A DNA stretch of 64,000 bases from Chloroflexota bacterium (GTDB lineage: Bacteria; Chloroflexota; Anaerolineae; Anaerolineales; UBA11579): positions 16,205 to 80,204 of the forward strand of contig QWJF01000003.1 of assembly GCA_009391835.1 (NCBI GenBank), given 5' to 3'. The notes beneath the pieces were generated by a model. That model did not search any database, had not been told where the DNA came from, and saw nothing but the letters and a program-made list of their open reading frames with translations. Each line of letters starts with the position of its first letter. The stretch's first letter is position 1. The translations under genes and the position numbers were made by a program. Shown here piece after piece: positions 28,421 through 61,599 of the stretch.

Positions 28421-28438
28421 TGCAAATTCCTGGCCTCT

Positions 28439-30196: not shown

Positions 30197-30235
30197 TATA
30201 GTCGAGGCAGGTTGAAGGGGTCTGGCAGTGAAAGA

Positions 30236-32677: not shown

Positions 32678-32680
32678 CTC

Positions 32681-35600
32681 TTAGTCCAGGGTGAGCGCGC
32701 TGGCGTTCGCGCGATAGATTACTGTGTCTTCAAAGCGGAAGACTTCTTCCCAGAGGCGCCCATCCTGGCGCTCAAATTTGCCAAGCCCACTGCCTGGATA
32801 ATAGGCGCGCTCCAATTGTCCTACGATGACGTATTCGACATCATAGGTTTGGAGAAAATCATTGACGAAAGCCAAATCACTGGTTTCATAAAATTGCTGT
32901 ACCGCGCCAACCCGGCCCCAAATATCGTTGCCAGGGACGAACTCGCGCTGTTGGCGTTGGTGCCAGTTCCAGCCGATGACAGCCGGCAATCCGGTGTTGA
33001 TTGCGTATCGAGAGCCCCAGCGGTATTCGCCAGTATGGGCTTCGACGATAACGGGCGATCCTTCGACGTTATCCTGCAACCAACGAATGGCAACATAATC
33101 CTGGTTGAGATCGAGCTCCTGATCGCGCTCGTAATACACGGATGTTTGCATATAGGCCAGGCCGTCGAGCGTGTGGGGCGCAGTCGCCGACATGCGATCC
33201 TTCATCTTGGCGGGCACTGCCAAAACCAGGAATAGCGCACCGCTGGCAATCAAGACTGCGCCGATTCCCACCCAGACGCGCTGCCAGGAGGGCAGCCACT
33301 GACGAACCTCGTTGAATGTCCAAGCCAGGGCCAGGGTCGCACTGAGGGCAAAGAGCGTCCAAACCTGCATGTAGAATTTGAAGACTGTGTTCATTCGAGA
33401 GATGTCGCCGCGCAGAACTACAACTTCGACCATAAGCGTGAGGAAAAGCCCAGTGCCAACCAGGAAAAGCACAAGGCGCTTGCTTTCCGGTTGCCCAGGC
33501 CGCAGGATGAGCAGACCCGCCCAAAGCATCAGCGGAAGAACGAACCAGGCAATATGCACGCCCAAGCCGGTGAGCGCCACAATGGCGGCCAATAAAACCA
33601 GAAGCCCTGCGTAAATCAGGAGCTGGTAAGGCTTGAGTTTTCGCAGAGAGGATAGGGGTGTACTTGCCAACCATTGGCGGGTTTCCCATAACATCCAAGC
33701 CAGGATAAAGAAGAGCATGATGCCCCAATGCAGGAGATAGACGCCAGAGGGCGTGTGGGAACCTGCCCAACGCTCCAGGCTGGTAAAACCCTGACGATAC
33801 CAATGGGCATAGGGTTGGTAGGCAAGGATCGAGGCGAAAGTAATTGCCGCAATGCCGCCAGCAGAATAGAGCCAGCGCGAAGCCGGCTGAATATCCCGTT
33901 TATCCGGGGGAAAATAATGCCCGATAGCATACGCTACGGCGAATGCGGCGATGACCAGATACGTGGGCAAGTCCCAGGTGTTGGTGGGGCGCAGGCTGCC
34001 AATGGCGATGCCGCCGAAGAGGAAGACCCAGAGAAGCTGAAGCGGGGCGCGCTGGCCGCGCCAGGCACGGCTCAAAACGACGGAGAGCGCCCAGGCCAGA
34101 GCAAGCAGTGTGAGAGGCAAAGCGATCATGTGGGCGTGTAGATCGGCGTACGTGAAGGTGAAGAGCGGGAATTCAGTAATCGGAGCGCTCTCACCGGGCG
34201 CTGGGATGATGCGGGTAGGGTTCCAGTACCAATCGCCGAGACCAAAAGGCAGCGGCTGACCAAGAATACGCAGCACAAGGCCACGAGCAGTCCAGACCAA
34301 ACCAGTGATCAAGCCTGCCTCGGTGCCATAAGCGCCATCGCTGCCCAGGCGCATGAAACCCTGGAAGATCATTTGCAGGGAACCCAGGTTGCCCGCCAAT
34401 ACCAAGGCGATGGCAGCCAGGATGCCTACACGATGGGATGCGTTATCTTCATCTTGTTCATCTTCAGTATCCGATTTCCAAGCGCGGTACAGGTTGCTGG
34501 CGAGTGAATAGGCGCCAAGGGCCAGCATGGCGAAGAGGCTGGGCAAAATCAGGTTGTAGGCCACGGAGGGGATAATGCCGAGCAACTTGGTGAGTGAGCC
34601 GACCAAGACAAAACCATAGTAATAGTAGTTAATGTAGCCACCCGCAAACCAGGGATCGTAGGCGGGGAAGCTGGTGCTTTTCAAAACGGCGTTGAAATAG
34701 GCGAAATCCATCGGTTTTTCGCCACCTTTGCCGGGATGCCACAAGTCGGGATTAAACCAGCGGATCAGCAGCATCAGAATGAAGAAGGCGAAGAAAAGCA
34801 CTTCTGTACGCATGAAGAGATGTCGTTTGCGTTCCCACAAGGCGCGCAATTCAACTCGCTGGCGATACGCGGCCCAGGCCCCGGCCAAGATGAGAAGCAG
34901 TGCTACGGCTGCTAACCAGCCGCGCGTAAAGCTCAGGCCGAGCGAGGCACCCAGCCAGGCAAAGTAGGAGAGCAGAAGCAGCCCAGCGAGGCGCGCCAAG
35001 GGATAGCCGTGATCCTGAAGGCCGGGCATGGCCCAGCGAACCATCGGGAAGGCTGCGAAACCGAGCACGGCTAAGGCCAGATACCAAATCAGTGCGCTTA
35101 CTCCGGACGAAGTATTAATCCAGTTATCCACGTCAAAGAGTTGCGACCAGGTGCCACCTGCACGTTGGCGCTCCCAATCCGGTTCGGGAAGCATCAGGTT
35201 GGGCGCCTGAGCGCCGGCGGCGTCCTCAAGGGTGAGCGGGACGGGACCCGTGGCTTGTTTGGGCGTAAGGTGGATCACATTATCCAGATTGACGGCGGAA
35301 AGAAGAGAGACGACTTCAGCCTGATCGTAATCTGCGCTCTTCTTGAAAATGAAAACCTTGGGGTGATCGTAGACCGTAAAGGCCTCTTCAGAGACCTGAT
35401 CGTTGATCACGAGGGAATTAAGCTGGGGTGAGGAATCGAAGATTTGGACAAGCTCGTAGCCCAGGCGACCTTCGAAATCGCCAAGCTGGGCCACATTGAA
35501 ACAAGACTCAATGGTTTGCCCCTCGGGGCATCCGAGCAACAAACGATAATATTCTGTGACCAGCGGGAAACGCTCAGGGATGCGGGGAAGGCTAGCCCAT

Positions 35601-37885
35601 TGTCGGCTGGAGGTAACAAAGAGATATTCGCCGCGATCCAGGATATCCAGGAAGCGATTGAGCTTGGTGGCATCTTCGTCCCAGTACATTTCAAAATTCA
35701 GCCCCCCCTGATAAACACCGCCGAAGGGGTCGTAGCCATCCAGGCGAAGGGGAATGCCATCATCCCAACTGCTCTCGCTGACCACCCCAGCGCCCAGGAG
35801 CGTGGCGGTGCCCGCAGTCTCCATATCAATCTGCATATAGAGCACCTGCTCGGGTTGAATTGAAACACTCTCGCTGAGGCGGAAGTTTGCAGGGGTCGTA
35901 AAGCCGCGGGCCGCGCTCTCGGGATGCAGGACGCCGTCGGCTTCAGCAACGATGCTGCCCATTTCCGGAGTGGTGCTTAGCGCGATATGCACGTCCAATG
36001 GAGCCAATTCAAAATTGGTAAGGGCAGTGAGATTGATCACTAACTGATCGACTGGGAAATCTGCAAAAATATCAAACGTCAGCGTGATGTGGTCGCCAAG
36101 AGACGCTTCTACGATCTCTTGAAGCACGGATTGGGGAACGACGGCTGGATCCTGGGTGTTCATTAAATCGGCTTGATCGAGACGCAACTGGCCCCCTCCC
36201 CCGGGTAAGTTTAGGGTGAGCTGATAAGGGCCGGGAAGACCAATCGGGATGGGAAAAAGAATCTGCTGAGTTGAGCCGGATACCAAGGACACCCAATCGA
36301 CAACATAGCCTTGAGACGAAACAAGTTGGGTTGTTTCGCCTTGGCCGGAGACCAAATCCAACTGGATAGGGGCAAGAACATGATAGAGGGATATTTCTTC
36401 AAGCGTGCCCGTATCCTGCATGCGGAAACTGGTGAAATAGGGTGTGTTTTGGGAAAAAACCTGATTTTGACGATATGGAACCTGCTGCTGTTTGGGGCCG
36501 GCGGCAGTCTCAATAGTCAGCGTGATCGGACCTGGCACATTTTCATAAATCCAGCGGCTGGCGGCAATACGGGTGACCGGTTGCTGGTAAATCCGCACAA
36601 ATGCAAAGGACCAGACCGCACTGCCCAAAAGAGCCACGGCAGCTAACAAAATAGCCACGGGACGGGCCCAGAAGCGCCAGCGGCTGCCATCGTCCCTAGC
36701 ATGGGCGCCTTCATCCCATAAGCGAAAGAGTGCCCAGGCGCCAAAAACGGCCAACACTGGATATACAGGCAGCAAATAGCGCATTGTGGGATTGAAGGCC
36801 ACCGATTGCCACACAAAATAAAGGGCACCCCAGGCCCAAAGCAATAGCTCCGGTTTATTCCAGCCGCGCTTGATAAGCACCCAAGCAGCCCAAAGGAAGC
36901 CGCCCCAGGCAACGATGGCAAGCGGAAGACCCATGCCCCAGCGAGCCATATTCTCAAAAGCAAACCAGATAGGCCGGCGTGCCCATTGCATGGAAGGCGG
37001 CCAATCAATATCTCCGGTGGCCTGACCACGCAGCTGGCTTAGGGTGTCCAGCCAGGCCGAATTCAAGCTGACATTAAAGAAGCTGGGGCCAGCAAATGCA
37101 TAGGGTTGGAAAATGCGAAAAATCAGAAAACTGACCGCGCCGGCCGCCGCGAGAAAAGCAAAACCCCGAGCATATATGGGTTTGCGTTGTTCGTTGGGGA
37201 GCTGCCAGAGGCGAAGAATGAGCGCCGCCGGGAGCATCAGTGCAAGTGGGGCGGCGCTGACCTTGGAGGCCATTGCCATGCCCAGGGCGATACCAAAGGC
37301 CACGAAATCGAAGAGGTTCAAGCTGGTTGCCGGATCCTCGCCTTCACTGGATTTTTCTGGGCCCGCAATACGGATCGCAAAATACAGCGCGAGGAAAATA
37401 AAGAAATTGAGAAAGTTGTCTACCGTGAAATAGTGGGATTGCTGAATTTGGACAACAGTGAAAGCGGAAAAGGCCGCGGCGAGTAGGCCGACGCGTTTAT
37501 CAAAAAGGCGGATGGCAATCAGATAGACAAGGAAGATAACCCCCAGATCGGCGACGGCAGAGAGCGCACGGCCCACGATATGCACCTGATCGTAACCGGT
37601 TTGCCCAAGCCACTCAGCCACGTAGCGGACCGCGATGATGGGCAAGGTGCCGTACACAAAGAAGGAAAAGCCCCGATTGTTGGGGTTGAGGGTCGAGGTG
37701 GCGGTGTTGAAATAATCGCCCAGCTTCTCCACCGGTATCAATGCAGATTCAACTTGGGCTAGAAATCGCTCGTCGGGATGGAGATGGTGCTCGGCGTCCC
37801 AGCGAATACCCGTCGTGCGCAAAAAGGCGGCCACTAAAATGAGGGCCAGAAAAATCAGATCGTAAATTCGGGAGCGTTTGATCAC
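32681..37885 (-). CDS. 1734-aa fusion protein: N-terminal PMT/ArnT-like GT-C module, large extracytoplasmic region, C-terminal DUF2298/YYY module
   Basis: The GTG start at 37885 overlaps the upstream stop (GTGA).
- N-terminal module: [23 protein letters not shown] and about 11 TM helices, down to about 36560.
- Beta-rich soluble region: about 35110-36555, ending ...[11 protein letters not shown].
- Second module: from about 35100 to 32681, paralogous to the 813-aa protein ([48 protein letters not shown]; C-terminal [18 protein letters not shown]). Confidence 0.75.
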   Translation of the reverse strand: [1734 protein letters not shown]

Positions 37886-40038
37886 TGGATTGTCCCTACA
37901 CGATAAACAAGGAAATCCTTGCCCACATATTCACTGGGTTGAAGCTGACTCTCGCCCTGGGGATACAAGTTTTGCAAAGTAGCCAAGCCATCCACATCCA
38001 GCACGTTGAGGACAAAAAGTTTGGGCTCGGGAACATCCAAAGTGGAGACGAGTTCCTCCGGCCATAGCCCGATTTCACGGCCGGGTTGGTCAGCATTGAA
38101 AGCCACCAAACGCGTGTCCACCCAGTGCGGGTAGGCCACCACCCAGGTGCTTTGATCCTTGCCAATGCGATCCGAGAATTCACGGATAACTGCACCCATC
38201 TCTGACGAATTCCACGACTGCTGGCGATATTGGGCATTGTATTGATTGAAAACAAGATCGTAATTAAGCCCCATAACGATCACGACCAACACCACCCCAG
38301 CGCCCCAGCCTATCCATTTGCCCTGCTTCTCGGCAAGGCGATCTTTAATCGCGTGCACAAAGGCCACCAGGGCAATCGCACAAATTATGAAGATTGGAAC
38401 TGCAGAGCCGCCGGCGCGGTTCATGGCGGGATTCTCCTCCGGGAATGCCAGCGAAAGTATTGAAGGCATCATTAGCAATGGAACCGCCAGCAGCAGGAAT
38501 AGATCCTGCCAGTTGCGCGCACGGAGATAGCGGAGCACCACCAGGGCCACGCCGAGCAGGAAGAGTGCGCCTGAAACAAGGTCGAGCGCAGGGCGATTCA
38601 ACAGACCCACCAACCAAATGCTGCCGCCCGAATAAATTGGCAAACCCAAGGCATCCAGTAGATTATCAAAGAAGATAGCTAAGACGGGGCCGGGGTAATT
38701 GATTTCCGCATCCCCCAGGCGGGAAAAGGCCCTGAAACTGAACTCCTGCCAATTTTCAATTGAGTAGCGAAGCAGGGGCGCAAAGACTACAAGGGAAACA
38801 AGCACAAGCACCGCGAAGGCAATCAGTGCGCGACGCTCTGCATAGCGATCCTTTTCATGCAGCCAATACATAACGAGCGCCACCACCATCACGACTGGCA
38901 CGATGCGAAACGAGGTGTAGCCATAGAGTCCAACGCCGAGGAAAAGCCCCGATAGCAGGAAATCATTGATGGTGCGGCGGCGCAACCCGCGCAACAGATA
39001 ATAAAGCGCTGGAGCAGTGAAGCTCGGAAATAGAATGAAGCGCAAGCCAGCACGAGCAAGGACATTCGGCCAATAAGCGACCCCCATGAGCAGCAGGGCG
39101 AGAATGCCCACCCAGCGGCCGCCGAGTTCTTTGCCAAGCAAATAGATATAGATGAGAGAAAACAATCCGAATAAGGCCATGCCGATCTTAAGGCTGAGGA
39201 AGGATAGGCCAGTACCAAACCAACTAGCGATGAGCGCGGTCACATAAAACTGGAGCGGCTCGCGGCCCGTGTTGCGGATAAAAAATATCGGGCTTTGGCC
39301 GTTTTGAATATCCAGGACGTCGAGGAGTTTTTCAGCATGATCACTCAACATTTCAGGGGGGACCGCGCTTAACTGGTAGAAACGGAAGAATGCGGCGATT
39401 CCAAAAGCGACCAGAATTGCCAACGTGTACCCAGAGACACGCTCCCGCCAAGCCTGTGGCTGAATCCATGCTTTATACTGCTCAATACGCGCGCTGACGT
39501 CCGCTCGACTGATCGGCAATCCCTGCCAAAAAGCCGCCATCGTGGCGAAGATGGCGATTATCCAAGTCGCGACGTTGTCGGGCGTAAATTGATTTCCACT
39601 AGTCTCCAACAAAGTGCGCGCAAAGAAAATCAGACCGATTATCAGCGGGAAACCACGAACACTCAAGACGGATTGGTCGGGCAGCCCCAGGGTAATTTCA
39701 GGCAACCGCCATTCACCAATTCTGGCAGACCATATGATGAGGCCAAGCGCGCCGAAGGCAAGCGGCGCGCCGGCAAGCCAGGTTCCATTGGGTGGCCGCC
39801 AGGCGATCTGGGCAAAAATCAGGAGGAGAAATGCCAGGGAAGTCCGCCAGGGAATCCCGGTCAGGTCAATTGGTGAAACAGCCGCTGGTTTGGCTGCCGG
39901 CTTTGGGCTGGATGTAGAGACGCGTGCCGATCGCTTGGCGCCTGGCTCAGGCAGGGGCGGGATTTCCGGAGCAGGGCCGCGCCAAGGCATGAGTTTGGCC
40001 TTGAGATAATCGAGAATGCTGGGTTCTTGTTCTTGCAT
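37882..40038 (-). CDS. glycosyltransferase family 39 (ArnT/PMT-like, GT-C fold) membrane protein
   Basis: About 718 aa. I chose the ATG at 40038, preceded by GAGGAAG; the ORF track starts at TTG 40041. A Pro-rich cytoplasmic N-terminus is followed by about 12 TM helices. The acidic loop is PEMLSDHAEKLLDVLD, and the C-terminal soluble domain is about 100 aa. Confidence 0.6.
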   Translation of the reverse strand: MQEQEPSILDYLKAKLMPWRGPAPEIPPLPEPGAKRSARVSTSSPKPAAKPAAVSPIDLTGIPWRTSLAFLLLIFAQIAWRPPNGTWLAGAPLAFGALGLIIWSARIGEWRLPEITLGLPDQSVLSVRGFPLIIGLIFFARTLLETSGNQFTPDNVATWIIAIFATMAAFWQGLPISRADVSARIEQYKAWIQPQAWRERVSGYTLAILVAFGIAAFFRFYQLSAVPPEMLSDHAEKLLDVLDIQNGQSPIFFIRNTGREPLQFYVTALIASWFGTGLSFLSLKIGMALFGLFSLIYIYLLGKELGGRWVGILALLLMGVAYWPNVLARAGLRFILFPSFTAPALYYLLRGLRRRTINDFLLSGLFLGVGLYGYTSFRIVPVVMVVALVMYWLHEKDRYAERRALIAFAVLVLVSLVVFAPLLRYSIENWQEFSFRAFSRLGDAEINYPGPVLAIFFDNLLDALGLPIYSGGSIWLVGLLNRPALDLVSGALFLLGVALVVLRYLRARNWQDLFLLLAVPLLMMPSILSLAFPEENPAMNRAGGSAVPIFIICAIALVAFVHAIKDRLAEKQGKWIGWGAGVVLVVIVMGLNYDLVFNQYNAQYRQQSWNSSEMGAVIREFSDRIGKDQSTWVVAYPHWVDTRLVAFNADQPGREIGLWPEELVSTLDVPEPKLFVLNVLDVDGLATLQNLYPQGESQLQPSEYVGKDFLVYRVGTIQ

Positions 40039-40062
40039 CAATGATTGCTTCCTCAGGCGCTC

Positions 40063-40090
40063 ATTTTATCGTAGGGGTCTTAGCCGTCAA
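40063..40090 (-). promoter_or_regulatory. candidate internal promoter ahead of the four GT-C/YYY genes
   Basis: On the minus strand: TTGACG (40085-40090), a 16-nt spacer, then TAAAAT (40063-40068). It lies in the largest gap (61 nt) of the gene train. Confidence 0.4.
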
Positions 40091-40102
40091 TGAGAAGGAA
40101 CG

Positions 40103-40846
40103 CTAAGCCCTCTGTTTATCGGCAATCATGATTAAGCTCTCGCCCCTACTTAAGGGCAGGAAGCTTCCACCCAGGATTGCCTGCAATCCGCCGGGCCAAC
40201 CGTACCAGAGGCGTTGGATGGCTTGGGGCACAAAGCGAACATAGGGTGGATCCCAAAAGCCGTCCGAAAAAACCTTGCGCTCTTTCAGTCCAGCCGCATT
40301 GAGCATCGCCAGCCATTCCGTAGGGCTGTGCAGGCTGATATGGGTGGGATCCTGGTAGCCAACCCAGGTTTTTCCTTTACGGGCGTGCATCGGCGAATCG
40401 GTGTTGGGCGTGCCCATCACAAAAATACCGCCTGGGGCAAGGACGCGGCCAATCTCCTGGATAGCTTTTTCGGGGTTGGGGAGGTGCTCGGTGACATGCT
40501 TGGCGATTACAATTTGGAAGGTCGAATCTTCATAAAGTGATAGGTCCTCCGCAGAACGCAATGCAAAGTGCCCTTGGGGAACATTGTTACGGGATTGCTC
40601 CAAGGCCCATTCATTCACATCCACGCCGTGAACTTCATATTGCCCAGTCAGGCGTTGCAGCAAATGGCCTAGGCCGCAACCCACTTCAAGAACTTTGCCA
40701 GAGGGCGGACCGTGCTTGGCGGCCAGCAAAGCGTAATAACGATTGGACCACCAGTATTGGCTATACCGCGCAAAGGATACGCGCGCATAACGGGCGGATT
40801 GAAAATATTCTTTGTCGAATGGATGATCCGAATTGTTTGCCATCAA
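40103..40846 (-). CDS. class I SAM-dependent methyltransferase
   Basis: 247 aa. Motif I is VLEVGCGLGHLL, the post-I acidic residue is VHGVD, and the motif II-like stretch is FQIVIAKHVTEH. Confidence 0.85.
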   Translation of the reverse strand: MMANNSDHPFDKEYFQSARYARVSFARYSQYWWSNRYYALLAAKHGPPSGKVLEVGCGLGHLLQRLTGQYEVHGVDVNEWALEQSRNNVPQGHFALRSAEDLSLYEDSTFQIVIAKHVTEHLPNPEKAIQEIGRVLAPGGIFVMGTPNTDSPMHARKGKTWVGYQDPTHISLHSPTEWLAMLNAAGLKERKVFSDGFWDPPYVRFVPQAIQRLWYGWPGGLQAILGGSFLPLSRGESLIMIADKQRA

Positions 40847-41641
40847 TCAAACCTTGCGGGAAACATAGAAAGTGAAAGCTCCCTGCTTGTGGTGATCCAA
40901 GGTGGCGTGTTCGCCGACCAGTTTGGCGGTCAAAGCCAGATTCCAATGGGCGGAGCTAAACAACCAACGGCGAGTGAGTATGCGGGGAAGAATGGTAGGC
41001 GCGCCGAAGTAATGGCCCCAATCCAGCGTGCGCATAGCAGCCGGCGAAAAATAATGCCACCAGCGATCCAATGTAAAACCAGCGCGCTTGAGGCGCGCTT
41101 CCCACTGCTCTGGATTTTCAGCGTGGTGCACGCGGGAAATGCGACGAAACCAGGCTTCGTAGGGCTCGCGCAGGAAGGGCAGCAAGCGGGGAACGCCCAG
41201 TTCCTTGAAATAGGTTGGATTAGGAACGCAGAATAGAAAGGGTGCCCCTTTTTTAAGCATGCGCCCCGTTTCTTTTAAGACATTGTCTAATTCAGGGATG
41301 TGCTCGAGCACGGAATTGCTGAGCGCGCTGCCAAAATGGGCAGAAGGAAATGGGGCGCGGGCGCCATCCGCCTGGACAAGGCCATCGTAGGCCGCCCAGC
41401 GTTTGGCCTCCCTCAAGGAGGGAAGATGAGGATCCAGGCCAACCTTCAATTTGCGCTGAAAGGCGATGCTGGCGAAATGGCCATCCCCACAACCTACGTC
41501 CAACACGGGACCGGGCAGTGCAAGATCCTGATAATAAGCGGCTTCAACTGCCCTCAGAATGGCCCGGAAATAGGGCAACGATTCTAGCATGGGCCAAAGG
41601 AAGGGGTTTTTGTTGTTTGGTGTGGGTTGTAGTGAGGTCAT
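40847..41641 (-). CDS. class I SAM-dependent methyltransferase
   Basis: 264 aa. Motif I is VLDVGCGDGHFA, with GLD and SNSVLEHIP blocks. The junction with the downstream methyltransferase gene has zero gap. Confidence 0.85.
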   Translation of the reverse strand: MTSLQPTPNNKNPFLWPMLESLPYFRAILRAVEAAYYQDLALPGPVLDVGCGDGHFASIAFQRKLKVGLDPHLPSLREAKRWAAYDGLVQADGARAPFPSAHFGSALSNSVLEHIPELDNVLKETGRMLKKGAPFLFCVPNPTYFKELGVPRLLPFLREPYEAWFRRISRVHHAENPEQWEARLKRAGFTLDRWWHYFSPAAMRTLDWGHYFGAPTILPRILTRRWLFSSAHWNLALTAKLVGEHATLDHHKQGAFTFYVSRKV

Positions 41642-41653
41642 GTGAGCAATTGG

Positions 41654-42823
41654 TCAGCGTTGCACAAGCTGGTTGGCAATCTCTTTAAACAGGGCTTCGT
41701 GGCGCTCAGCGCACATTGCGGGGCTGAATTGCTCCCGCAAGGCGTCGCTGTCCCCACGGAATTGGGCCGGGTTATCCAGAACGGCGAGCATGTTTTCGGC
41801 CAGCGCGGCAGCATTCCCGAGTGGCGTTACGCGGCCCATGCCGGTCATCGTTACCGGTTGGCGAACGCCCGGCAAATTTGAAGCAACGACGGGCTTGCCG
41901 TTCATCATGGCTTCGATCTGAACAAAGCCAAACGTTTCCGTGGAGTTGGTACTGGGAACCACCAGGAGATCAATATTGGGGTAGAAGTTAGCCATCTGCT
42001 GCATATCCAGGACTCCCAGGAACTTCCATTGACCCTGGGATTCGTATTGGCGAATTGTGGGCATTAAACGCTTGAGGTAAGCCTCTTCACCGAGAACATC
42101 CTTGTATTGGCCGGCAAACCAGACCATCGCATTGGGATGCTTCTCCAAAATGCTGGGAAGTGCCTGAATGAGCAACTCAACACCCTTTTCCGCCGCGAAG
42201 CGAGTGGCCATCGCGATCACGGGATGGCGCTGCTCAGGATTATTTTCCTGCGCAAAAGCCCGGATGTCCTCTTTCGGCGTCTGGGGCAACTCCACTGCAG
42301 GCGGAATGACGCGAACTTTCTCAGGATAGCTGCTGAGATATGGCGAATAGCTGGCAAAATCTTCGGTATAGGCAGAGATTCGATGGGTGAAGATTGCCGA
42401 GAGATGGTTCATGCTATTGATGACCAGATTCACCAGGCGGTTGAACAGCCCCGGAGGCAACGTAAGGTCTGAATGGTAGATGATGACAGTCGGTTTCTTC
42501 ATTAGGCGGCCACGCAAGGCCAAGCCGGCGGCATCGAACTGGGGAAGATGGAGTAGGACAGCATCGTGTTTGCGAATTTCCTGCGTAGACACAATCCCAA
42601 AGGAGGGAATGAGAACTCCCTTACTGATCCGAGTGAGGATGGGGAGACGACGAATACGGACGCCATCCCGGATTTCCTCCAAGGGAAGATCGGCTTCAAA
42701 TTGGGAGGTAAGCACAGTAACTTCATGCCCACGCTGAACCAATGCTTTGGCCAAACGCTCAGCATAAATCGTCAGCCCGCTTGTATGCGGCCGATAATAG
42801 GTCAGCACAGTCAAAATTCGCAC
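41654..42823 (-). CDS. glycosyltransferase family 4 (GT-B, retaining) protein
   Basis: 389 aa. The N-terminus is MRILTVLTYYRPHTSGLTIY. The C-terminal donor-binding block is PSTNSTETFGFVQIEAMMNGKPVVASNLPG (EX7E-type). Confidence 0.85.
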   Translation of the reverse strand: MRILTVLTYYRPHTSGLTIYAERLAKALVQRGHEVTVLTSQFEADLPLEEIRDGVRIRRLPILTRISKGVLIPSFGIVSTQEIRKHDAVLLHLPQFDAAGLALRGRLMKKPTVIIYHSDLTLPPGLFNRLVNLVINSMNHLSAIFTHRISAYTEDFASYSPYLSSYPEKVRVIPPAVELPQTPKEDIRAFAQENNPEQRHPVIAMATRFAAEKGVELLIQALPSILEKHPNAMVWFAGQYKDVLGEEAYLKRLMPTIRQYESQGQWKFLGVLDMQQMANFYPNIDLLVVPSTNSTETFGFVQIEAMMNGKPVVASNLPGVRQPVTMTGMGRVTPLGNAAALAENMLAVLDNPAQFRGDSDALREQFSPAMCAERHEALFKEIANQLVQR

Positions 42824-42842
42824 AAACGAAGTTTAGTACAAA

Positions 42843-43871
42843 CTAAGCGAAGAGATTGTGATTCGCTCGCACCCAATTGACCAGGTGCTCGACTCCGTCA
42901 TTGATAGGCACTTGGGGCGTCCAGGCGAGTTCGCGCTTGGCCTTACGGATGTCGCTGATATAGACTTTTTGATCGCCGGGGCGAGGTTCCATCCAGGAGA
43001 CGGGTATTTTGCGGCCAAGCAGTTGCTCCAACATGGGGCCACATTCCAACCAAATGGATAACGTGTGCTTGGGGCCGCCGCCGATGTTGAAGACCTGGCC
43101 GGCCACAGCCGCCCGGTTTTCGACCGCTGAATCGTAGGCACGCACCAAATCGCGCACATCAAGCATATCGCGCACCTGCTTGCCATCACCAAAAATGGTG
43201 ATGGGGTGTTCGAGCACGGCTGCAATGACAAACCAAGCCAGCCAACCTTGATCTTCGACCCCAAATTGGCGTTGCCCATAGATGCAGCTTTGGCGCATCA
43301 CCACACTCGGGATGTCATAAATGCGCGCGTAATCATGAACGTATTGCTCAGCAGCCCCCTTCGAACAACCGTAGGGGGAATGAAAATCAAGCTGTTGGGT
43401 TTCCGGCACTCCATGAGGCAGCTTGGCGTATTCATAGCGCTTGGCCCTCTCGACCACCGGATGGTCTTCCATCTCACCATACACCTTGTTGGTGGACGAG
43501 TAGATGATAAATGGGTGCCGGTCTGAAGCGCGAGCTGCCTCCAGCAAATTGAGTGTCCCAAGCGCATTAATCTCAAAATCTGTGCGCGGATCAAGAACCG
43601 AGGTGGTGACGGCTACCTGCGCGGCCAGATGAACGATGACATCCGCATCGCTCGTGGCATCCTTAATCGAATCCGGATCGCGCAGATCACCGACGACAAG
43701 ATTGAACGAATCTGCGCCATGCGATTGGCGCAACCAGGCCAAATTGCGATCAGCGCCGCGGCGAGAGAGGTTGTCAAAAATGGTGACCTGGCGGCCCTGC
43801 GTCAGCAAGTGATCCACGTAATTGCTGCCGATAAACCCAGCGCCGCCTGTCACTACGTAATAATCAGCCAA
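42843..43871 (-). CDS. NAD-dependent NDP-sugar epimerase (extended SDR, CDP-paratose 2-epimerase-like)
   Basis: 342 aa. It has the Rossmann motif VTGGAGFIGSNYV, the catalytic YGCSK, and the block RQSCIYGQRQFGVEDQGWLAWF, which resembles the CDP-tyvelose/paratose 2-epimerase subfamily. The substrate is not determinable from sequence. Confidence 0.8.
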   Translation of the reverse strand: MADYYVVTGGAGFIGSNYVDHLLTQGRQVTIFDNLSRRGADRNLAWLRQSHGADSFNLVVGDLRDPDSIKDATSDADVIVHLAAQVAVTTSVLDPRTDFEINALGTLNLLEAARASDRHPFIIYSSTNKVYGEMEDHPVVERAKRYEYAKLPHGVPETQQLDFHSPYGCSKGAAEQYVHDYARIYDIPSVVMRQSCIYGQRQFGVEDQGWLAWFVIAAVLEHPITIFGDGKQVRDMLDVRDLVRAYDSAVENRAAVAGQVFNIGGGPKHTLSIWLECGPMLEQLLGRKIPVSWMEPRPGDQKVYISDIRKAKRELAWTPQVPINDGVEHLVNWVRANHNLFA

Positions 43872-44894
43872 TTAGCCTTCTCCTTGCGTCATCGAGGAGC
43901 GGGTGAGCAGTTGCCGGTATACATGTCCAAGCGATTCACCTTGTCCGGCAAAGCCGATCGCGCCCCCCACGCCCGTCATCACAAAATATAGCGCGTGGGC
44001 GGCAATCGCGTAGGCCAGGGCAAGCGAGGGTTCGATGCCGAATAGTGAAAGCCCAGCGACAACTGCGCCTTCCAACACTCCGATGTAGCCAGGGGACGAA
44101 GGCAAAGCCACGCCCAGCGAGCCAAGGGCGACTGCCACAACGGTCCAAATGAACTGTGGCTCGGGGAAAAAAGCAAACATCAGGGCGAAATACCAGGCAA
44201 GATTGAAAGCCCAGGCCAGGGCCATCCAGAAAGAAACCGTGAGGAAACGCAGCCCGCTTTTCAAGGCTGCGAGCCCCTCAGTAAAAGCAGCCAGCTTTTT
44301 TCCGACCCAGGATTGCAGCCTCGGCCAGGGTCGGGTGAGAGCCGAGATCAATCGAAGAAAGGCAACAGGATTAGCTGCTAAAGCAAACAGCAGCCCAAAG
44401 CCCATCACTACAAGCGCACCAGCAAAGAAAGCCGCTGAACGAATCCAGCTCAAGTCAACAAAAAGAGGCAGGCTGACCAGTAATAGTCCGGCAGCGAAAC
44501 CCACGTCAAAAATGCGCTCGACGACGATGGTGGAGAACACACGCCAAAAACCGAGGCCGCTCCGCTGGCCCAAAAGCAGGGCGCGGCCCAATTCACCGAG
44601 GCGAAAGGGAAGCACATTGTTGAGCAGGTAGCCTTGATTCAATGCAAGAAAACTATCTTTGAATGAGACCTGTTCTTCAAGCAGAGTGCGCCAGGCTTTG
44701 GCCCTAATTGCGACCGCGCCCAAAAACAGAAGTGCGGCTACAGGGACCCATGAAAAATTTGCCTGAGAAAAAGCGGCAGCCACTTGATTGATATCAATGA
44801 AAAAGAACAAAATAACTAGGGCCAAGGCGCTTATCAAGATGCCGGGCAGCATACGGGCAAAGAGCCTGGGGGAGGATTCGCCGGGTTTAGTCAT
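43872..44894 (-). CDS. UPF0104 / lysylphosphatidylglycerol-synthase-TM-region-like (flippase-like) membrane protein
   Basis: About 340 aa with roughly 8 TM helices. The family-typical block is RAKAWRTLL...[24 protein letters not shown]. The start is uncertain (ATG 44894 or 44852). The ORF-track start at 44948 would overlap lepA by 62 nt. Confidence 0.65.
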
Positions 44895-46689
44895 CGTCGA
44901 GGCGTAAGACGGCGAGGAAAGCCTCCTGAGGGATTTCCACACTTCCAACCATCTTCATGCGCTTCTTGCCCTTTTTCTGCTTTTCGAGCAACTTGCGTTT
45001 GCGGGTCACATCGCCACCGTAGCATTTTGCCAAAACATCTTTGCGAAGCGCTTTAACGTTGGCACGCGATATTACGCGCCCCCCTGAGATCGCCTGGATG
45101 GGGACGACGAAAAGCTGCTGAGGAATCAGATCTTTCAGTTTGGAGATCAGAGCTTGGCCGCGATGGTAGGCCTTGTCTTTATGGACGATGGAAGCCAGTG
45201 CGTCCACGGGTTCAAGATTAACGAGAATGTCCAGTTTAACCAAATCCTCGGGGCGGTATTCCTTGAATTGATAATCCATCGAAGCATAGCCACGGGTAGC
45301 GGATTTGAGTTGGTCGAAAAAATCGACGATCAATTCAGCGAGGGGAATCTCAAAATTGAGTTGAACGCGATCCGGTGAAGGATACTCCTCGCCAATGTAG
45401 GTAGCACGACGCTTCGTGGCCACGTCCATAACTGGGCCATAGTACTCGGTGGGGGTAAAGATTTGAACATCCATCCAGGGTTCACGGATTTCTTCAAGCT
45501 CGTCTTCCTCGGGCAAACCAGCCGGGGAATCAATGCGGATTGTCTCGCCGTTTTTGAGTAGCACCTGGTAAGCCACGGATGGCGCGGTGACAATAATATC
45601 CAAATCGTATTCACGCTCAAGGCGTTCCTGGATGATCTCCATATGAAACATACCCAGAAAGCCGCAACGAAACCCATAGTTGAGGGCCTGAGAAACTTCC
45701 TGCTCATAAACCAGTGAGGCATCATTGAGTTGAAGCTTTTCAAGCGCGTCTTTCAGATCATCGTAATCTTCACCCTCGATAGGATAAATGCCCGCGAAGA
45801 CCATCGGCTTTACCTGGCGATAGCCGGGCAAAGGCTCAGGAGCGGGATTCGATTTGGTGGTAAGGGTATCCCCCACTCTGCATTCCGATACCGATTTCAA
45901 GCCGGTAGCCACATAGCCCACTTCCCCGGATTCCAACACATTTGTGGCGCGCATGGCAGGCGCAAAGATACCCACCTCGATGGGCCTCATGGAAACACCT
46001 GTAGCGATGAGATGCAAGCTTTGCTCTCCCTCGATGCGGCCATCCACCACGCGAATATAGGCCACTACACCCTTGTAGGAATCGTAATGCGTATCGAAGA
46101 TGAGCGCCCGCAAGGGAGCATCAGCATTGCCCTTCGGCTGCGGCACCCGCTGAACTATGGCTTCGAGAACCAGCTCAACATTCTCGCCTCTTTTGGCTGA
46201 AATTTGCAAAATATCTTCACTGGGGGTGCCAATCAGTTGGCTTATTTCGGCGGCAACCTCCTCAGGGCGAGCAGAAGGCATATCGATCTTGTTGATCACC
46301 GGGATGATCTCCAAATCAGCTTCAAGGGCCAAATAGAGATTAGCTAGCGTTTGGGCCTGAACGCCCTGGGTGGCATCCACGACGAGAACGGCTCCTTCGC
46401 AGGCATTGAGCGCGCGGCTCACTTCGTAACCAAAATCAACGTGTCCGGGGGTGTCAATAAGATTCAACTCGTATTCGTTTTTGTCAGCAGATTTGTAACG
46501 CATACGCACCGCAGAGGCTTTGATGGTGACGCCTTTTTCGCGTTCGAGATCCATCGTATCCAGTACCTGGTCGGTCATTTCTCGCGCGGAAACCGTCTCC
46601 GTGAGTTGGAGCATACGGTCAGCTAGCGTGGATTTGCCGTGGTCAATATGAGCTATGATGCAGAAATTACGGATGCGTTGGGTTGTCAT
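44887..46689 (-). CDS. lepA: translation elongation factor 4 (LepA)
   Basis: The start is at [25 protein letters not shown] (G1 motif), with DTPGH (G3) and NKID (G4). The LepA-specific C-terminal domain ends ...[22 protein letters not shown]. Confidence 0.97.
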
Positions 46690-46850
46690 GAGCCGTGGAA
46701 GTATAACCGACCGGGTCAGCAGGATGAACGGCACAAAAACGCACTTGACCGAGAAAAACGTACGTATTTTCCAGCCTGATTACTCAGAAAACCTGCTACT
46801 ATCCTGGGAATCTCAAGGGAGAAAGCGAGCAAAAATGCCAAGGAGCGATT

Positions 46851-48452: not shown

Positions 48453-48892
48453 GGGCTTTTATCCTTTACTGGCTCCAAGATGATGATCGGGATGAGCCGG
48501 TCCGTTTTCTTTTCATAGCGTTGGTAGGCGGCTTCCATGTTTTTAAAATCTTCCCATAGGCGACGTCGCTCGTCGCCCTTTTCCTCACGAGCCAGCACAG
48601 ACAACATTATCTTGCCGATTTGTATTTGGGCATGAGGCTCAGCTAGTAAATTGAAGCGCCAACCCGGATGTACATCAGCACCACCATTGGAGGCAGCAAT
48701 CACGAAATTGACGCCATCCCTTCTGTAACTAATCGCGTTAACGCGCCGTCTCTGCGTACGGCGGCCAACTGTATACAACAATAGCACCGGCATGTCCAAC
48801 AAACGCGCCCCCAGCCGCCCCCCACTCCACATATAAATCCACAGGTGAAGTTTCCAGATAAAACGAATCAACAAATTGTCTTTGGGCGGCAT
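48449..48892 (-). CDS. deazaflavin-dependent nitroreductase (DDN/DUF385) family protein
   Basis: 147 aa. LLLYTVGRRTQRRRVNAISYRRDGVNFVIAASNGGADVHPGWRFNL matches the split-barrel DDN family pattern (GRKSG...P..Y..DG....VAS.GG....P.W..NL). Confidence 0.75.
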   Translation of the reverse strand: MPPKDNLLIRFIWKLHLWIYMWSGGRLGARLLDMPVLLLYTVGRRTQRRRVNAISYRRDGVNFVIAASNGGADVHPGWRFNLLAEPHAQIQIGKIMLSVLAREEKGDERRRLWEDFKNMEAAYQRYEKKTDRLIPIIILEPVKDKSP

Positions 48893-49695
48893 CAGGCGCT
48901 TTCCTCGGCAGCAACAACTTGATCCATTGCGTACTCAATCAAAGCACTGTCCTCAATTTTTGGTGATTTTCCTGGATTGAATTGCACTAAAAATTCCACA
49001 TTGCCCTTAGGGCCCCGAATCGGGGATGTGATCAGTTTCTGGGGAGCGAGGCCCATCTGGGCTCCGGATTCAAGAATATCGGCGAGCACCTGACGATGAA
49101 TTTCGGGATCCCTGATTACCCCCTTGCCGCGGCTAACCTGAGCCCGACCCGCTTCGAACTGGGGCTTGATCAAGGCAATGATCACCCCATGATCCGAAAG
49201 CCAATTAATTACTACCGGAAGCAAAATTTTGAGAGAAATAAACGAAGTGTCCACGGTTGCAAGCTCGATAAGTTCAGGGAGCGCAGCCAGATGTCGGGCG
49301 TTTTGCTTCTCCATCACAATGACGCGTGGATCTTGACGCAGCTTCCAATGCAGTTGGCCGCGCCCCACATCAATTGCATACACTTTGGCTGCACCATGCT
49401 GGATCAGGCAATCGGTGAAGCCGCCGGTCGAGGCGCCCACATCCGCGCAAATCAAATTCTTTACGGAGAAAGGAAAGGCGTTGAGGGCTGAATCCAGTTT
49501 TTCGCCGCCGCGCGAAACATAGCGGGGTGGTTTTGCAAGATCCAGGGCCACATCTTGATCCAGCATGGATGCGGGTTTGGGAACCAATTGGCCGGCAGCC
49601 CGCACCTGCCCGGCCATAACCAGGCGCTGTGCGAGAGCGCGGCTTTCGGCCAAGCCGCGTTCAACCAGCAACTGATCCGCGCGCTTTTTAGCCAT
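48892..49695 (-). CDS. tlyA: TlyA family rRNA (cytidine-2'-O)-methyltransferase
   Basis: 267 aa. It has an N-terminal S4-like RADQLLVERGLAESRALAQRLVMAGQV, then YVSRGGEKL and the SAM motif ADVGASTGGFTD. Confidence 0.9.
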   Translation of the reverse strand: MAKKRADQLLVERGLAESRALAQRLVMAGQVRAAGQLVPKPASMLDQDVALDLAKPPRYVSRGGEKLDSALNAFPFSVKNLICADVGASTGGFTDCLIQHGAAKVYAIDVGRGQLHWKLRQDPRVIVMEKQNARHLAALPELIELATVDTSFISLKILLPVVINWLSDHGVIIALIKPQFEAGRAQVSRGKGVIRDPEIHRQVLADILESGAQMGLAPQKLITSPIRGPKGNVEFLVQFNPGKSPKIEDSALIEYAMDQVVAAEESA

Positions 49696-49759
49696 TGCGG
49701 CATTCTATCACCCGCCTTTCGCGTTGTTCTCTCCCCTAAAGGATGCTATTATCTTCACC

Positions 49760-50629
49760 ATGTTTTCAGCCCTAATCAAAAACATGCGCCTAAAGCAATG
49801 GGCTAAGAATGGATTGCTGTTTGCCGGTCTGATTTTCGACCGGCAACTCACCAATTGGCCTTCGGTGCTTATTACGCTTGAGGGGTTTTTGCTGTTTGGT
49901 TTGCTTTCCTCAGGCGTGTATCTGCTCAACGATTTAATCGATCTGGAAGCCGACCGGCGACATCCGCGCAAGCGTTCCCGCCCGATTGCCTCAGGCAAGT
50001 TGGCGATCCCTGTCGCGGTGGGGGCGGCTATCTTGTTTTTCGCTTCAGCTTTTTTCTTTGGCTACCGGCTTTCGCCCGCTTTTGCCCTCGTTGCCTTGAT
50101 TTCTCTACTGCTCAATCTCAGTTATTCGTTGTGGCTGAAGCACATCCCCATTCTCGATGTAATCGTACTGGCCAGTTTTTATGTGCTACGTGTGGCCGCC
50201 GGTGTCACGCTGGTTGATGTCCAGCGCTTTTCTCCCTGGCTCTACGTGTTCACCACCTTTATGGCACTGTTTCTCGGGGTGGCAAAACGACGAGCCGAGC
50301 TGGCCCTGGTCGAAGGCGGCAGATCTCAGACGCGGCGGGTACTGGCAGGGTACACAGCACCCTTCCTTGATCAGATGCTGCAAACAGTTCTGACCCTAGC
50401 AATCCTGACCTACAGTCTATACACGTTTTCGGCGCCCAACTTGCCAGAAAACCATGCCATGATGTTGACGATTCCCTTCGTGATCTATGGCGCATTTCGC
50501 TATCTTTACTTGGTGCAGGTCATGAACAGTGGGGAAGCCCCAGAAGAAATCTTATTCAGCGATAGGCCGATACAGGCAACCGTGTTGCTCTGGGGCCTGA
50601 CCGTTCTCTACATTTTCTACACTTATTAG
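49760..50629 (+). CDS. UbiA-superfamily polyprenyl-phosphate phosphoribosyltransferase (decaprenyl-phosphate 5-phosphoribosyltransferase-like)
   Basis: About 289 aa starting from ATG 49760. The blocks RLKQWAKN, YLLNDLIDLEADRRHPRKRSRPIASG, VAKRRAEL and GEAPEEILFSDRPIQ align by eye with the Rv3806c-type motifs RPRQWVKN, YLVNDVRDVEADREHPTKRFRPIAAG, GKRYAEL and GEPEDIALRDRVLQ. Confidence 0.8.
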   Translation: MFSALIKNMRLKQWAKNGLLFAGLIFDRQLTNWPSVLITLEGFLLFGLLSSGVYLLNDLIDLEADRRHPRKRSRPIASGKLAIPVAVGAAILFFASAFFFGYRLSPAFALVALISLLLNLSYSLWLKHIPILDVIVLASFYVLRVAAGVTLVDVQRFSPWLYVFTTFMALFLGVAKRRAELALVEGGRSQTRRVLAGYTAPFLDQMLQTVLTLAILTYSLYTFSAPNLPENHAMMLTIPFVIYGAFRYLYLVQVMNSGEAPEEILFSDRPIQATVLLWGLTVLYIFYTY

Positions 50630-50634
50630 CCCCC

Positions 50635-51576
50635 ATGCCTGCTAGCATTGCATCAGCCCCAGGCAAGGTGATCTTGTTTGGCGAACACGCGGTTGTATAT
50701 GGTCAGCCGGCAATCGCCGTCCCGGTGGCAGACGTGCAGGCAAAAGCAATCGTGCAACCAGATATAGGTGCGCCGAGTGGGCAGGTGCATATCCATTCCG
50801 AGGCCACTCAACTGGATGGATTGCTGCAGGATTTCGGGGAGAACGAACCGGTCGCCGCCGCGCTGCGACTAACCTTGCGTAAATTCGGGATTGACACCCC
50901 GCCCGCCTTTAAACTTCGCATTCAGTCCAGCATTCCCGTGGCCGCCGGACTGGGCTCGGGGGCTGCGGTTTCCGTAGCGATTATCCGGGCTGTATCCGAC
51001 TTTCTGGGACACCCGCTTCCAGACGAAGCCGTCTCCGCGCTGGCCTATGAGGTAGAAAAACTGCATCATGGCACACCATCAGGGATTGATAATGCAGTGG
51101 TAACCTTTGCAAAACCTGTGTATTTCGTACGCGATCAAACGCTTGAGGCCTTTCAGGTAGGCGCGCCATTTACCCTGGTGATCGGCGACACGGGCGTAGC
51201 TAGCCCCACGCGCGCAGCCGTCGAAGACGTGCGGACCGCTTGGCGAGCGGACCAGAATCGATATGAGGCCTTGTTTGGCGAGATTGGCGCACTCAGCAAT
51301 TTAGCCCGCAAAAAGATTGAACAGGGTGAGATCGAATCAGTCGGCCCCCTCATGGACGCCAACCAAAAGCTCCTCCACGCGATTGGGGTCTCAACATCTG
51401 AACTTGATACACTCATTCAGGCTGCGCGGCAGGCTGGCGCAAGCGGGGCTAAGCTTTCCGGTGGCGGGCGAGGTGGAAACATGATTGCCTTGGCCCCCGA
51501 GGGAAGCGCCCAGGCAATTAGCGAAGCGTTGTTTGAGGCAGGCGCAACGAACACCATAGTGACAACAGTGCAATGA
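50635..51576 (+). CDS. mvk: mevalonate kinase
   Basis: 313 aa. The N-terminus is ASAPGKVILFGEHAVVYG, the GHMP ATP motif is PVAAGLGSGAAVSVA, and the C-terminus has GAKLSGGGRGG. Confidence 0.85.
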   Translation: MPASIASAPGKVILFGEHAVVYGQPAIAVPVADVQAKAIVQPDIGAPSGQVHIHSEATQLDGLLQDFGENEPVAAALRLTLRKFGIDTPPAFKLRIQSSIPVAAGLGSGAAVSVAIIRAVSDFLGHPLPDEAVSALAYEVEKLHHGTPSGIDNAVVTFAKPVYFVRDQTLEAFQVGAPFTLVIGDTGVASPTRAAVEDVRTAWRADQNRYEALFGEIGALSNLARKKIEQGEIESVGPLMDANQKLLHAIGVSTSELDTLIQAARQAGASGAKLSGGGRGGNMIALAPEGSAQAISEALFEAGATNTIVTTVQ

Positions 51577-52403: not shown

Positions 52404-52432
52404 TTGACAGTGGCTTCTGGGGCCATTAAACT
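52404..52432 (+). promoter_or_regulatory. candidate promoter for dgt-greA
   Basis: TTGACA (52404-52409), a 17-nt spacer, then TAAACT (52427-52432), 25 nt upstream of the dgt ATG. Confidence 0.4.
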
Positions 52433-54083: not shown

Positions 54084-54115
54084 AACCCCGGCAGTATCGG
54101 ACAAGCGCAGAACAT

Positions 54116-54143
54116 AAAAGCGCCCGCAACTGCGGGCGCTTTT
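54116..54143. terminator. bidirectional rho-independent terminator
   Basis: AAAAGCGCCCGC, loop AACT, GCGGGCGCTTTT. It lies between the convergent stops at 54083 (+) and 54162 (-). Confidence 0.85.
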
Positions 54144-54161
54144 GATCACTTTTGTCGAAAT

Positions 54162-61525: not shown

Positions 61526-61573
61526 ATAATTCTTCGCTCCTCTAAAGCAGGATATATACTGTATTATACTTGG

Positions 61574-61599
61574 CTGGTAGGGATAAGAATCCCTACCAG
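61574..61599. promoter_or_regulatory. perfect 11-bp-arm palindrome (operator-like) over the -35/spacer of the putative rpsP promoter
   Basis: CTGGTAGGGAT, AAGA, ATCCCTACCAG. The rpsP -10 (TATAAT on the minus strand) is at 61563-61568. A related element, CTGGTAGTTGGATTTTATCCCT, occurs at 61667-61688. Confidence 0.5.

Follow-up and report, generated by a model that had tools for sequence, protein, structure and literature searches.

Lipid-linked ribose is the entry point of all known extracytoplasmic pentofuranose glycosylation, which includes the formation of mycobacterial arabinan, the arabinosylation of Pseudomonas pilin and the addition of O-antigen side chains in enterobacteria. It is made by a family of UbiA-fold enzymes, the decaprenyl- or polyprenyl-phosphate 5-phosphoribosyltransferases (DPPRS/PPPRS). 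The active-site contacts of one member, Mycobacterium tuberculosis Rv3806c (PDB 8j8j, 8j8k), have been defined by cryo-EM and mutagenesis (Gao et al. 2024, PMC10994848). In Citrobacter youngae (ORF15) and Pseudomonas aeruginosa PA7, the PPPRS is part of compact, accessory and serotype-specific three-component systems, which also comprise a phosphatase, either fused to it or encoded next to it, a flippase of the MATE or SMR type and a glycosyltransferase of the C fold (GT-C) (PMC11127046). Here we describe a gene assigned to this family in a window of 64 kb (the whole stretch of DNA analysed, 64,000 nucleotides, from an 82-kb metagenome scaffold of a Chloroflexota bacterium). Judging from its sequence, this gene very probably encodes a membrane phosphoribosyl pyrophosphate (PRPP):polyprenyl-phosphate 5-phosphoribosyltransferase of the Rv3806c (DPPRS/PPPRS) family, and lies in a unit with genes for mevalonate kinase (MVK) and, in many loci, isopentenyl-phosphate kinase (IPK), written below as UbiA-MVK-(IPK). 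The gene is the following:

49760..50629, + strand: putative polyprenyl-phosphate 5-phosphoribosyltransferase (PPPRS/DPPRS family, UbiA fold), 289 aa, assigned from NCBIfam models, the match to 8j8j, the contact residues and an AlphaFold2 (AF2) model

The open reading frame (ORF) ends at 50629 and could start at 49724 (TTG) or 49760 (ATG). An identical public protein (P0001, 289 aa) begins at the ATG, which also agrees with the N-termini of 59 homologues; the frame 49760–50629, proposed earlier in a reading of the letters alone (the sequence-only reading), is thus a real one. P0001 is named 'MAG: decaprenyl-phosphate phosphoribosyltransferase [Chloroflexi bacterium]' at NCBI. The enzyme name is already correct in the public annotation, and the enzyme call is an ordinary one.

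Placement within the UbiA superfamily was judged by separation of hidden Markov model (HMM) scores, by profile search against the PDB and by fold comparison. The protein matches Pfam UbiA (PF01040, E = 1e-23) and scores above the cut-offs of two NCBIfam equivalog models for decaprenyl-phosphate phosphoribosyltransferase, NF008977 (241.5 bits, cut-off 234) and NF008978 (207.6 bits, cut-off 207), and below that of a third, NF008976 (157, cut-off 474); its score with the HAD-UbiA fusion model NF006088 is 187 bits. NCBIfam models of other prenyltransferases gave at most 58 bits against cut-offs of 180–419 (heme O synthase 39/210, UbiA 24/275, ChlG 26/313 and GGGP-type 27/296). In a single-sequence search of the PDB, Rv3806c (8j8j) was found with an E-value of 8.6e-36 and the next family only with 1.4e-4, and the alignment with 8j8j is collinear over the full length (query 3–282 versus 15–295, 33.6% identity). 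PPPRS activity has been demonstrated by experiment for homologues at similar identity (about 31–34%; Kelly et al. 2024, PMC11127046). With a profile built from 59 homologues, 8j8j scored 199 bits, compared with 43 for AfUbiA, 34 for ApUbiA, 29 for digeranylgeranylglyceryl phosphate (DGGGP) synthase and 26 for chlorophyll synthase. The AF2 model (pLDDT 87.8, pTM 0.82) has nine long helices, and Foldseek placed 8j8j_A first among PDB entries (TM-score 0.86, E = 1.8e-12), followed by AfUbiA (0.70) and the rest at 0.67 or below. The sequence-only reading had taken the protein for a synthase of decaprenyl-phosphoryl-5-phosphoribose (DPPR) and not a quinone, heme or chlorophyll prenyltransferase, and had named a quinone or heme prenyltransferase placement as the result that would overturn this; HMM cut-offs, the gaps in profile and TM-scores and the conserved contacts all bear out the DPPR synthase type. 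As far as sequence and modelled structure can tell, the protein agrees with the DPPRS/PPPRS family in every feature that can be tested, the ribose-O3 contact Q135 apart.

In Rv3806c, Mg2+ and ribose are contacted by N73 and D77, pyrophosphate by R22, K87, R90, Y138 and K143, the 5-phosphate by K28, Y70 and Y157, and decaprenyl phosphate by K28, Y157 and K191, with Q135 (to ribose O3) and K208 as further contacts (PMC10994848). Mapped through a HMMER alignment, 11 of these 13 residues are identical in the window protein (R10, K16, Y54, N57, D61, K71, R74, Y122, K127, Y141 and K176) and 2 are conservatively replaced (Q135 by N119 and K208 by R193). The Loop-II motif NDxxDxxxD (N73, D74, D77 and D81 in Rv3806c) corresponds to N57, D58, D61 and D65 and is 99–100% conserved in 144 diverse family representatives (36–49% identity). 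The Lys/Arg (K/R) cluster binding pyrophosphate (R22, K87, R90 and K143, with Y138) is retained without change as R10, K71, R74 and K127, with Y122, and so are the contacts to the 5-phosphate and polyprenyl phosphate, K28, Y70, Y157 and K191, as K16, Y54, Y141 and K176. The 'block for block' correspondence with Rv3806c noted in the sequence-only reading therefore holds, the alignment being collinear and both the NDxxDxxxD motif and the K/R cluster being present. The loop-IV pair R192/E195, equivalent to R366/E369 of ORF15 (Kelly et al., PMC11127046), is kept as R177/E180.

The 11 identical contacts are invariant across the 59 close homologues, and for 10 of them conservation reaches 96% or more in the 144 representatives. 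At the position of Y157, F is found in 121 and Y in 23 of the 144; besides it, only the positions of Q135 and K208 vary across the family. Since the Q135 position is occupied by N (63), T (23), Q (18) or M (16) in these representatives, it is, on this alignment, not family-defining. The phosphoribose contacts are not conserved among true UbiA prenyltransferases (Gao et al., PMC10994848), and their retention here therefore argues specifically for PRPP chemistry.

From this family membership and active site we infer the activity, the lipid chain used, the later steps and the acceptor glycan as follows. At the cytoplasmic face of the membrane, 5-phosphoribose would be transferred from PRPP to a polyprenyl monophosphate with inversion, as in Rv3806c, giving polyprenyl-P-beta-D-5-phosphoribofuranose. 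The NDxxDxxxD loop (N57, D58, D61 and D65) would hold one Mg2+, through N57 and D61, and the ribose; the leaving pyrophosphate would be held by R10, K71, R74, Y122 and K127, and the 5-phosphate and lipid phosphate by K16, Y54, Y141 and K176. On the model of the mycobacterial and enterobacterial routes, an unlinked phosphatase may then strip the 5-phosphate, after which the polyprenyl-P-pentofuranose would be flipped across the membrane and used by one or more GT-Cs on an envelope glycoconjugate. Because no epimerase is in sight, the sugar would by default be ribofuranose, barring an unlinked epimerase.

The UbiA gene is the first of a tightly packed unit, which is bounded as follows:

48892..49695, − strand: TlyA-like rRNA 2'-O-methyltransferase with S4 and FtsJ domains (Pfam FtsJ 2.9e-38, and S4), divergent neighbour
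49696..49759: divergent TlyA/UbiA intergenic region, 64 bp, candidate promoter region
50635..51576, + strand: MVK (TIGR00549, 268 bits, cut-off 163), 5 nt past the UbiA stop codon
51573..52382, + strand: IPK (NF040647, 161 bits, cut-off 120), overlapping the MVK gene by 4 nt
52457–53608, + strand: dGTPase-like HD protein (Pfam)
53610–54083, + strand: GreA (Pfam)
54115..54144, + strand: intrinsic-terminator-like hairpin with a 13-bp stem, the only strong one, closing the + strand unit after GreA

The isoprenoid-precursor genes which the sequence-only reading had placed beside the UbiA gene were confirmed as MVK (50635–51576, TIGR00549) and IPK (51573–52382, NF040647). With phosphomevalonate decarboxylase, these two enzymes are assigned to the alternative mevalonate pathway of Chloroflexota (compare Dellas et al. 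2013). The tight packing of UbiA, MVK and, where present, IPK suggests that use of the carrier lipid polyprenyl phosphate would be co-expressed with the supply of isoprenoid precursors. This operon is the first case found of the family inside an isoprenoid-precursor operon. The UbiA gene resembles the alternative mevalonate pathway genes in lying physically in their cluster, with MVK and IPK downstream and, in a relative described below, a gene resembling mevalonate decarboxylase (MVD) adjacent; unlike them, its product has no known catalytic role in isopentenyl diphosphate synthesis and would consume the downstream polyprenyl phosphate.

The 64-bp region between TlyA and UbiA presumably holds promoters, and a TATTAT hexamer lies 5–10 nt upstream of the ATG at 49760. 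The genes for the HD protein and GreA, present in 28–30 of 46 related loci, are possibly co-transcribed with the UbiA unit; a promoter-like site ahead of the HD gene (TTGACA-17-TAAACT, 52404–52432) may start a separate transcription unit. Farther downstream on the − strand lie a hypothetical but conserved protein, about 350 aa long and without a Pfam or NCBIfam match (54162–55244), whose position between GreA and TopA is kept in 30 of 46 loci of relatives, and topoisomerase I (55312–57639), which carries an N-terminal DUF5679 in addition to Toprim, Topoisom_bac and zinc-ribbon domains. A 372-aa ORF on the same strand (60803–61921) has ribosomal protein S16 as its sole domain match (residues 140–198); either its listed TTG start is too far upstream, which is probable, or it is an S16 with extensions. 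Apart from these genes and the glycosylation cluster described below, the window carries housekeeping genes. No Rfam match at the gathering threshold was found in the window.

Conservation of this context was followed in a scan of GTDB species genomes, which gave at least 594 matching stretches. Neighbours were counted in the best 80 of these, all from Anaerolineae-type Chloroflexota and 54–69% identical, by tblastn of the window proteins against 10 kb on each side, with correction for short flanks. The counts for the direct neighbours and the downstream flank were:

MVK, directly downstream on the same strand: 73 of 73 loci with enough sequence
IPK: 44 of 68 loci
TlyA, divergent upstream: 51 of 56 loci
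TopA, downstream: 30 of 46 loci
DprA, downstream: 26 of 46 loci

Gene-order strings have the invariant core '<TlyA UBIA> MVK>'. The pairing of UbiA with MVK is the strongest context signal, and it had been given too little weight in the sequence-only reading. The gene is apparently a conserved core gene of Anaerolineae-type Chloroflexota. Our literature searches turned up no paper that connects DPPRS or DprE1 with Chloroflexota, or the combination of UbiA and MVK with Anaerolineae.

The enzymes that follow Rv3806c in mycobacteria were sought in the window. Searches of the 64 kb revealed neither a phosphatase of the PAP2 or HAD kind nor a DprE1-type FAD oxidase nor a DprE2-specific short-chain dehydrogenase/reductase (SDR), in agreement with the sequence-only reading, according to which the DPPR phosphatase and DprE1/DprE2 are missing from the window. 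An SDR at 7886–8686 was considered as DprE2 and rejected, as it has generic SDR and FabG-like matches only. The DprE1 and DprE2 pair that marks the mycobacterial route to decaprenyl-phosphate arabinose (DPA) is thus absent from the window. The features of a three-component system are likewise lacking: the 289-aa UbiA-fold protein has no extra PRP/phosphatase domain, no phosphatase is fused or adjacent, and no dedicated flippase (MATE or SMR) and GT-C share its cluster. The nearest flippase-like gene (4.8 kb) and GT-C gene (9.7 kb) lie beyond TlyA and LepA on the other strand, and they are present in only 26–33 of 56 relatives.

Compared with Rv3806c, the window protein has the same nine-helix fold, a collinear sequence and the same contacts to Mg2+, pyrophosphate, 5-phosphate and lipid phosphate, and its gene is probably core in its lineage, as the Rv3806c gene is core (housekeeping) in mycobacteria. 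It differs in that i) no PAP2 phosphatase (the equivalent of Rv3807c) is adjacent, ii) no DprE1/DprE2, Emb or Aft-type GT-C genes are nearby, iii) the gene is embedded in a mevalonate-pathway operon, and iv) Q135 is Asn. With the C. youngae and PA7 enzymes it shares the family, the NDxxDxxxD motif and the expected order of steps, from PPPRS through phosphatase and flippase to GT-C; unlike theirs, its gene stands alone, is apparently core across the class, and has no PRP domain, adjacent flippase or adjacent GT-C.

Several observations weigh against this reading of the gene as a phosphoribosyltransferase that supplies a glycan donor. The cut-offs of NF008977 and NF008978 are exceeded by narrow margins, and the ribose-O3 contact Q135 is Asn in the window protein. 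No phosphatase, epimerase or dedicated small flippase adjoins the UbiA gene in the window, and unbiased ORF clustering of the 80 related loci revealed no recurrent phosphatase, oxidase, epimerase or dedicated small flippase; the minor ORF clusters, judging by their sequences alone, appear to be zinc-ribbon, HD-GYP, response regulator, CDF transporter, rhomboid, CPBP protease, CoxM-like and guanylate kinase proteins. In the searchable literature, no pentofuranose-containing glycan is reported for Anaerolineae, and the strict linkage to MVK has no precedent there or among characterised PPPRS enzymes; this linkage could hint at a role outside glycan synthesis.

The family extends well beyond Chloroflexota, with 2004 clusters at 50% identity (E <=1e-30) and named members at 39–46% identity in Caldilineaceae, Zixibacteria and Patescibacteria. 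In a 45%-identical relative (GCA_022843385.1, L089:8206-12627), an MVD-like decarboxylase gene is divergent from UbiA-MVK-IPK, so that the UbiA gene lies within a complete lower mevalonate cluster. In the Caldilineaceae relative, a TlyA fragment adjoins the gene and MVK is missing. The Zixibacteria relative (L090:457-4449) has the order YfhO(GT-C)-UbiA-GT2-GT2 with overlapping genes, and the Patescibacteria relative (L088:8339-12054) the order UbiA-DUF362-SMR-like-PRPP synthetase-RpiB, upstream of which lie genes for a DUF2142 GT-C-like protein and for UDP-glucose dehydrogenase. These last two contexts are independent support for the family using PRPP and for a GT-C taking up its product; since family members adjoin GT-C genes elsewhere, a GT-C user is therefore to be expected for the window enzyme. 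Each is also a candidate of interest in itself, the Zixibacteria locus as a new pairing of a PPPRS with a YfhO-family GT-C and the Patescibacteria locus as a compact pentofuranose-donor module in a bacterium of the candidate phyla radiation.

A candidate user is present in the window, in a cluster on the opposite strand:

28439..44948, − strand: envelope-glycosylation cluster, candidate user of the product, with the following genes
28439–30196, − strand: weakly Agl23-like membrane protein (TIGR03663)
30236–32677, − strand: stand-alone DUF2298/Chlor_Arch_YYY protein (TIGR03662, 490 bits)
32681–37885, − strand: PMT+DUF2298 fusion, 1734 aa, with an N-terminal PMT/PMT_2 GT-C domain and a C-terminal DUF2298 (Chlor_Arch_YYY)
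37882–40041, − strand: PMT_2 protein
within 28439..44948, − strand: two methyltransferases and a GT4
42843–43871, − strand: TyvE-like extended SDR (nucleoside-diphosphate (NDP)-sugar 2-epimerase)
43872–44948, − strand: flippase-like protein (TIGR00374)

The four GT-C-like proteins counted in the sequence-only reading were all recovered (28439–30196, 30236–32677, 32681–37885 and 37882–40041). The distance of 5 kb given there between the UbiA gene and the GT-C cluster applies only to the flippase-like gene (4.8 kb); from the closest GT-C gene, which ends at 40041, the distance is 9.7 kb, and the DUF2298 genes are more distant still, the fusion ending about 12 kb (37885) and the stand-alone gene about 17 kb (32677) away. 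LepA, a GGDEF gene on the + strand and an F420H2-reductase-like gene lie between the cluster and TlyA. A few bases are shared between the LepA gene and the start of the flippase-like gene (TIGR00374; both within 43872–46734, − strand), and in most relatives LepA directly heads the flippase-epimerase-GT4-GT-C block, so that this translation factor may be co-transcribed with the envelope-glycosylation operon. Across the GT-C block (26000–40000) the + strand also has a strong positive AT skew (+0.19 to +0.24), probably because the minus strand codes there for very hydrophobic membrane proteins with T-rich codons.

None of the four GT-C-like proteins has a sequence homologue in the PDB, where the PMT_2 and DUF2298 proteins were searched to infer the type of donor, and a literature search on DUF2298 returned nothing relevant. 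The SDR at 42843–43871 shares about 50% identity with the CDP-tyvelose 2-epimerase TaTyvE of Thermodesulfatator atlanticus (9RL0, E = 2.4e-92; 313 bits, versus about 130 bits for GalE), an enzyme that interconverts CDP-glucose and CDP-mannose. The SDR retains the T-N-K segment along with the catalytic Tyr/Lys pair and the residues that contact pyrophosphate (K126, R237 and R299); the cytosine-covering Tyr203 is replaced by Glu, and its nucleotide specificity may accordingly differ from that of TaTyvE. As the contacts to the NDP moiety are retained, this SDR is disfavoured as a single C2 epimerase converting polyprenyl-P-ribose to polyprenyl-P-arabinose and was rejected as a replacement for DprE1/E2 on a lipid-linked pentose. 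Together with a gene for a GDP-mannose-type NTP-transferase (GMP/ManC-type) in the window, it points to hexose (mannose-type) chemistry for the cluster. No GT2 polyprenyl-P-hexose synthase was found in the window.

Counted in the same way as above, the genes on this side of the UbiA gene were found as follows:

LepA: 34 of 56 loci
flippase-like gene: 33 of 56 loci
SDR epimerase: 29 of 56 loci
GT4: 26 of 56 loci
PMT_2: 20 of 56 loci
PMT+DUF2298: 21 of 56 loci, the count being limited by flank length

In 26 of 56 loci, no more than 10 kb separate the cluster from the UbiA gene. LepA is kept in 25 of these 26, and TopA in 16 of 19 cluster loci with both flanks; proximity of the cluster therefore follows general gene-order conservation, and unrelated housekeeping neighbours are conserved at least as well. 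The gene-order strings place the cluster in one large syntenic class, and other classes, e.g. '<Rhom <Gmk <TlyA UBIA> MVK> CPBP>', are without it. Large ORFs of the cluster-less loci were considered as alternative GT-Cs and rejected, being alpha-2-macroglobulin, P-type ATPases, NACHT, WD40 and GH2 proteins instead.

The sequence-only reading suggested that the enzyme supplies a lipid-linked donor to the DUF2298 ('YYY') and PMT_2 GT-C proteins; as their dedicated synthase, it would form with them a dispersed pentofuranose system or a lipoarabinomannan-like pathway, and this we consider rather unlikely. The order GT-C...GT4, epimerase, flippase-like, LepA, TlyA / UbiA, MVK does recur in 26 of 56 relatives at 54–69% identity, the PPPRS is the only lipid-sugar synthase visible in a 64-kb window that also holds four GT-C-like genes and a flippase-like gene, and the Zixibacteria and Patescibacteria family members adjoin GT-C genes. 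But 30 of the 56 loci have no cluster within 10 kb and no GT-C among their large ORFs, the cluster tracks LepA and TopA synteny, and it stands on the opposite strand with LepA and TlyA (here also the GGDEF and F420-reductase-like genes) intervening. The chemistry of the cluster also speaks against the link: its SDR resembles TaTyvE and keeps the pyrophosphate residues, a GMP/ManC-type gene is nearby, and archaeal Agl23 (TIGR03663), which the protein at 28439–30196 weakly matches, is tied to hexose-P-dolichol. Moreover, the GT-Cs coupled to PPPRS in other phyla are of the YfhO and DUF2142 types, not DUF2298 or PMT_2. More doubtful still is the broader proposal that Anaerolineae-type Chloroflexota make polyprenyl-phosphate pentofuranose as a core envelope precursor, with the DUF2298 and PMT_2 GT-Cs as transferases building a lipomannan-/lipoarabinomannan-like lipoglycan. 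Production of the donor would then be co-expressed with the mevalonate pathway, like the essential mycobacterial route through decaprenyl-phosphate ribose (DPR) and DPA, and the GT4, the flippase-like protein and the NDP-mannose-forming epimerase would join the GT-Cs in assembly.

A phosphoribosyltransferase-type enzyme could instead serve isoprenoid or lipid metabolism and not glycan donation, for example by acting on a short prenyl monophosphate akin to the substrates of IPK or by making a ribosylated lipid as an end product. The linkage to MVK in 73 of 73 loci, often with IPK and once with a mevalonate decarboxylase, would suit such a role, as would the lack of glycan genes adjoining on the UbiA gene's own strand; C. 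youngae ORF15 takes farnesyl-P in vitro, which indicates tolerance of chain length in the family (PMC11127046). This role is nevertheless improbable, since the contacts equivalent to K28, Y157 and K191 and the nine-helix cavity match those of Rv3806c, which binds decaprenyl-P, all characterised family members produce polyprenyl-P-ribose donors for GT-C enzymes, relatives in other phyla adjoin GT-C genes, and the Caldilineaceae relative keeps the gene without MVK. That the protein is a conventional UbiA-superfamily prenyltransferase (MenA, UbiA, heme O synthase, chlorophyll synthase or DGGGP synthase) misnamed through homology is hardly credible: Pfam UbiA membership, the name '4-hydroxybenzoate polyprenyltransferase' given to many homologues in JGI auto-annotation and the isoprenoid genes beside a UbiA-fold gene would fit such an enzyme, but all NCBIfam models of this kind score far under cut-off, the PDB profile search favours 8j8j by about 150 bits, and the window protein has all of the phosphoribose and K/R-cluster residues that, according to Gao et al., true UbiA enzymes do not conserve.

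With the gene very probably encoding a polyprenyl-phosphate 5-phosphoribosyltransferase, what is modestly new is its apparent core status in Anaerolineae-type Chloroflexota, the invariant pairing with MVK and the pentofuranose glycoconjugate, as yet undescribed, that these imply. As the gene call was already public, the gain is contextual rather than fundamental. If the lipoglycan proposal were true, it would provide the first function for DUF2298 and a pentofuranose glycoconjugate in a phylum with none known. The Chloroflexota concerned are abundant but poorly cultured bacteria, common in wastewater, sediments and the subsurface, and one small gene whose product can be assayed with PRPP offers a concrete handle on them. 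Its conservation across several hundred Chloroflexota species genomes predicts that these bacteria may carry an undescribed envelope glycoconjugate of the ribofuranose or arabinofuranose type.

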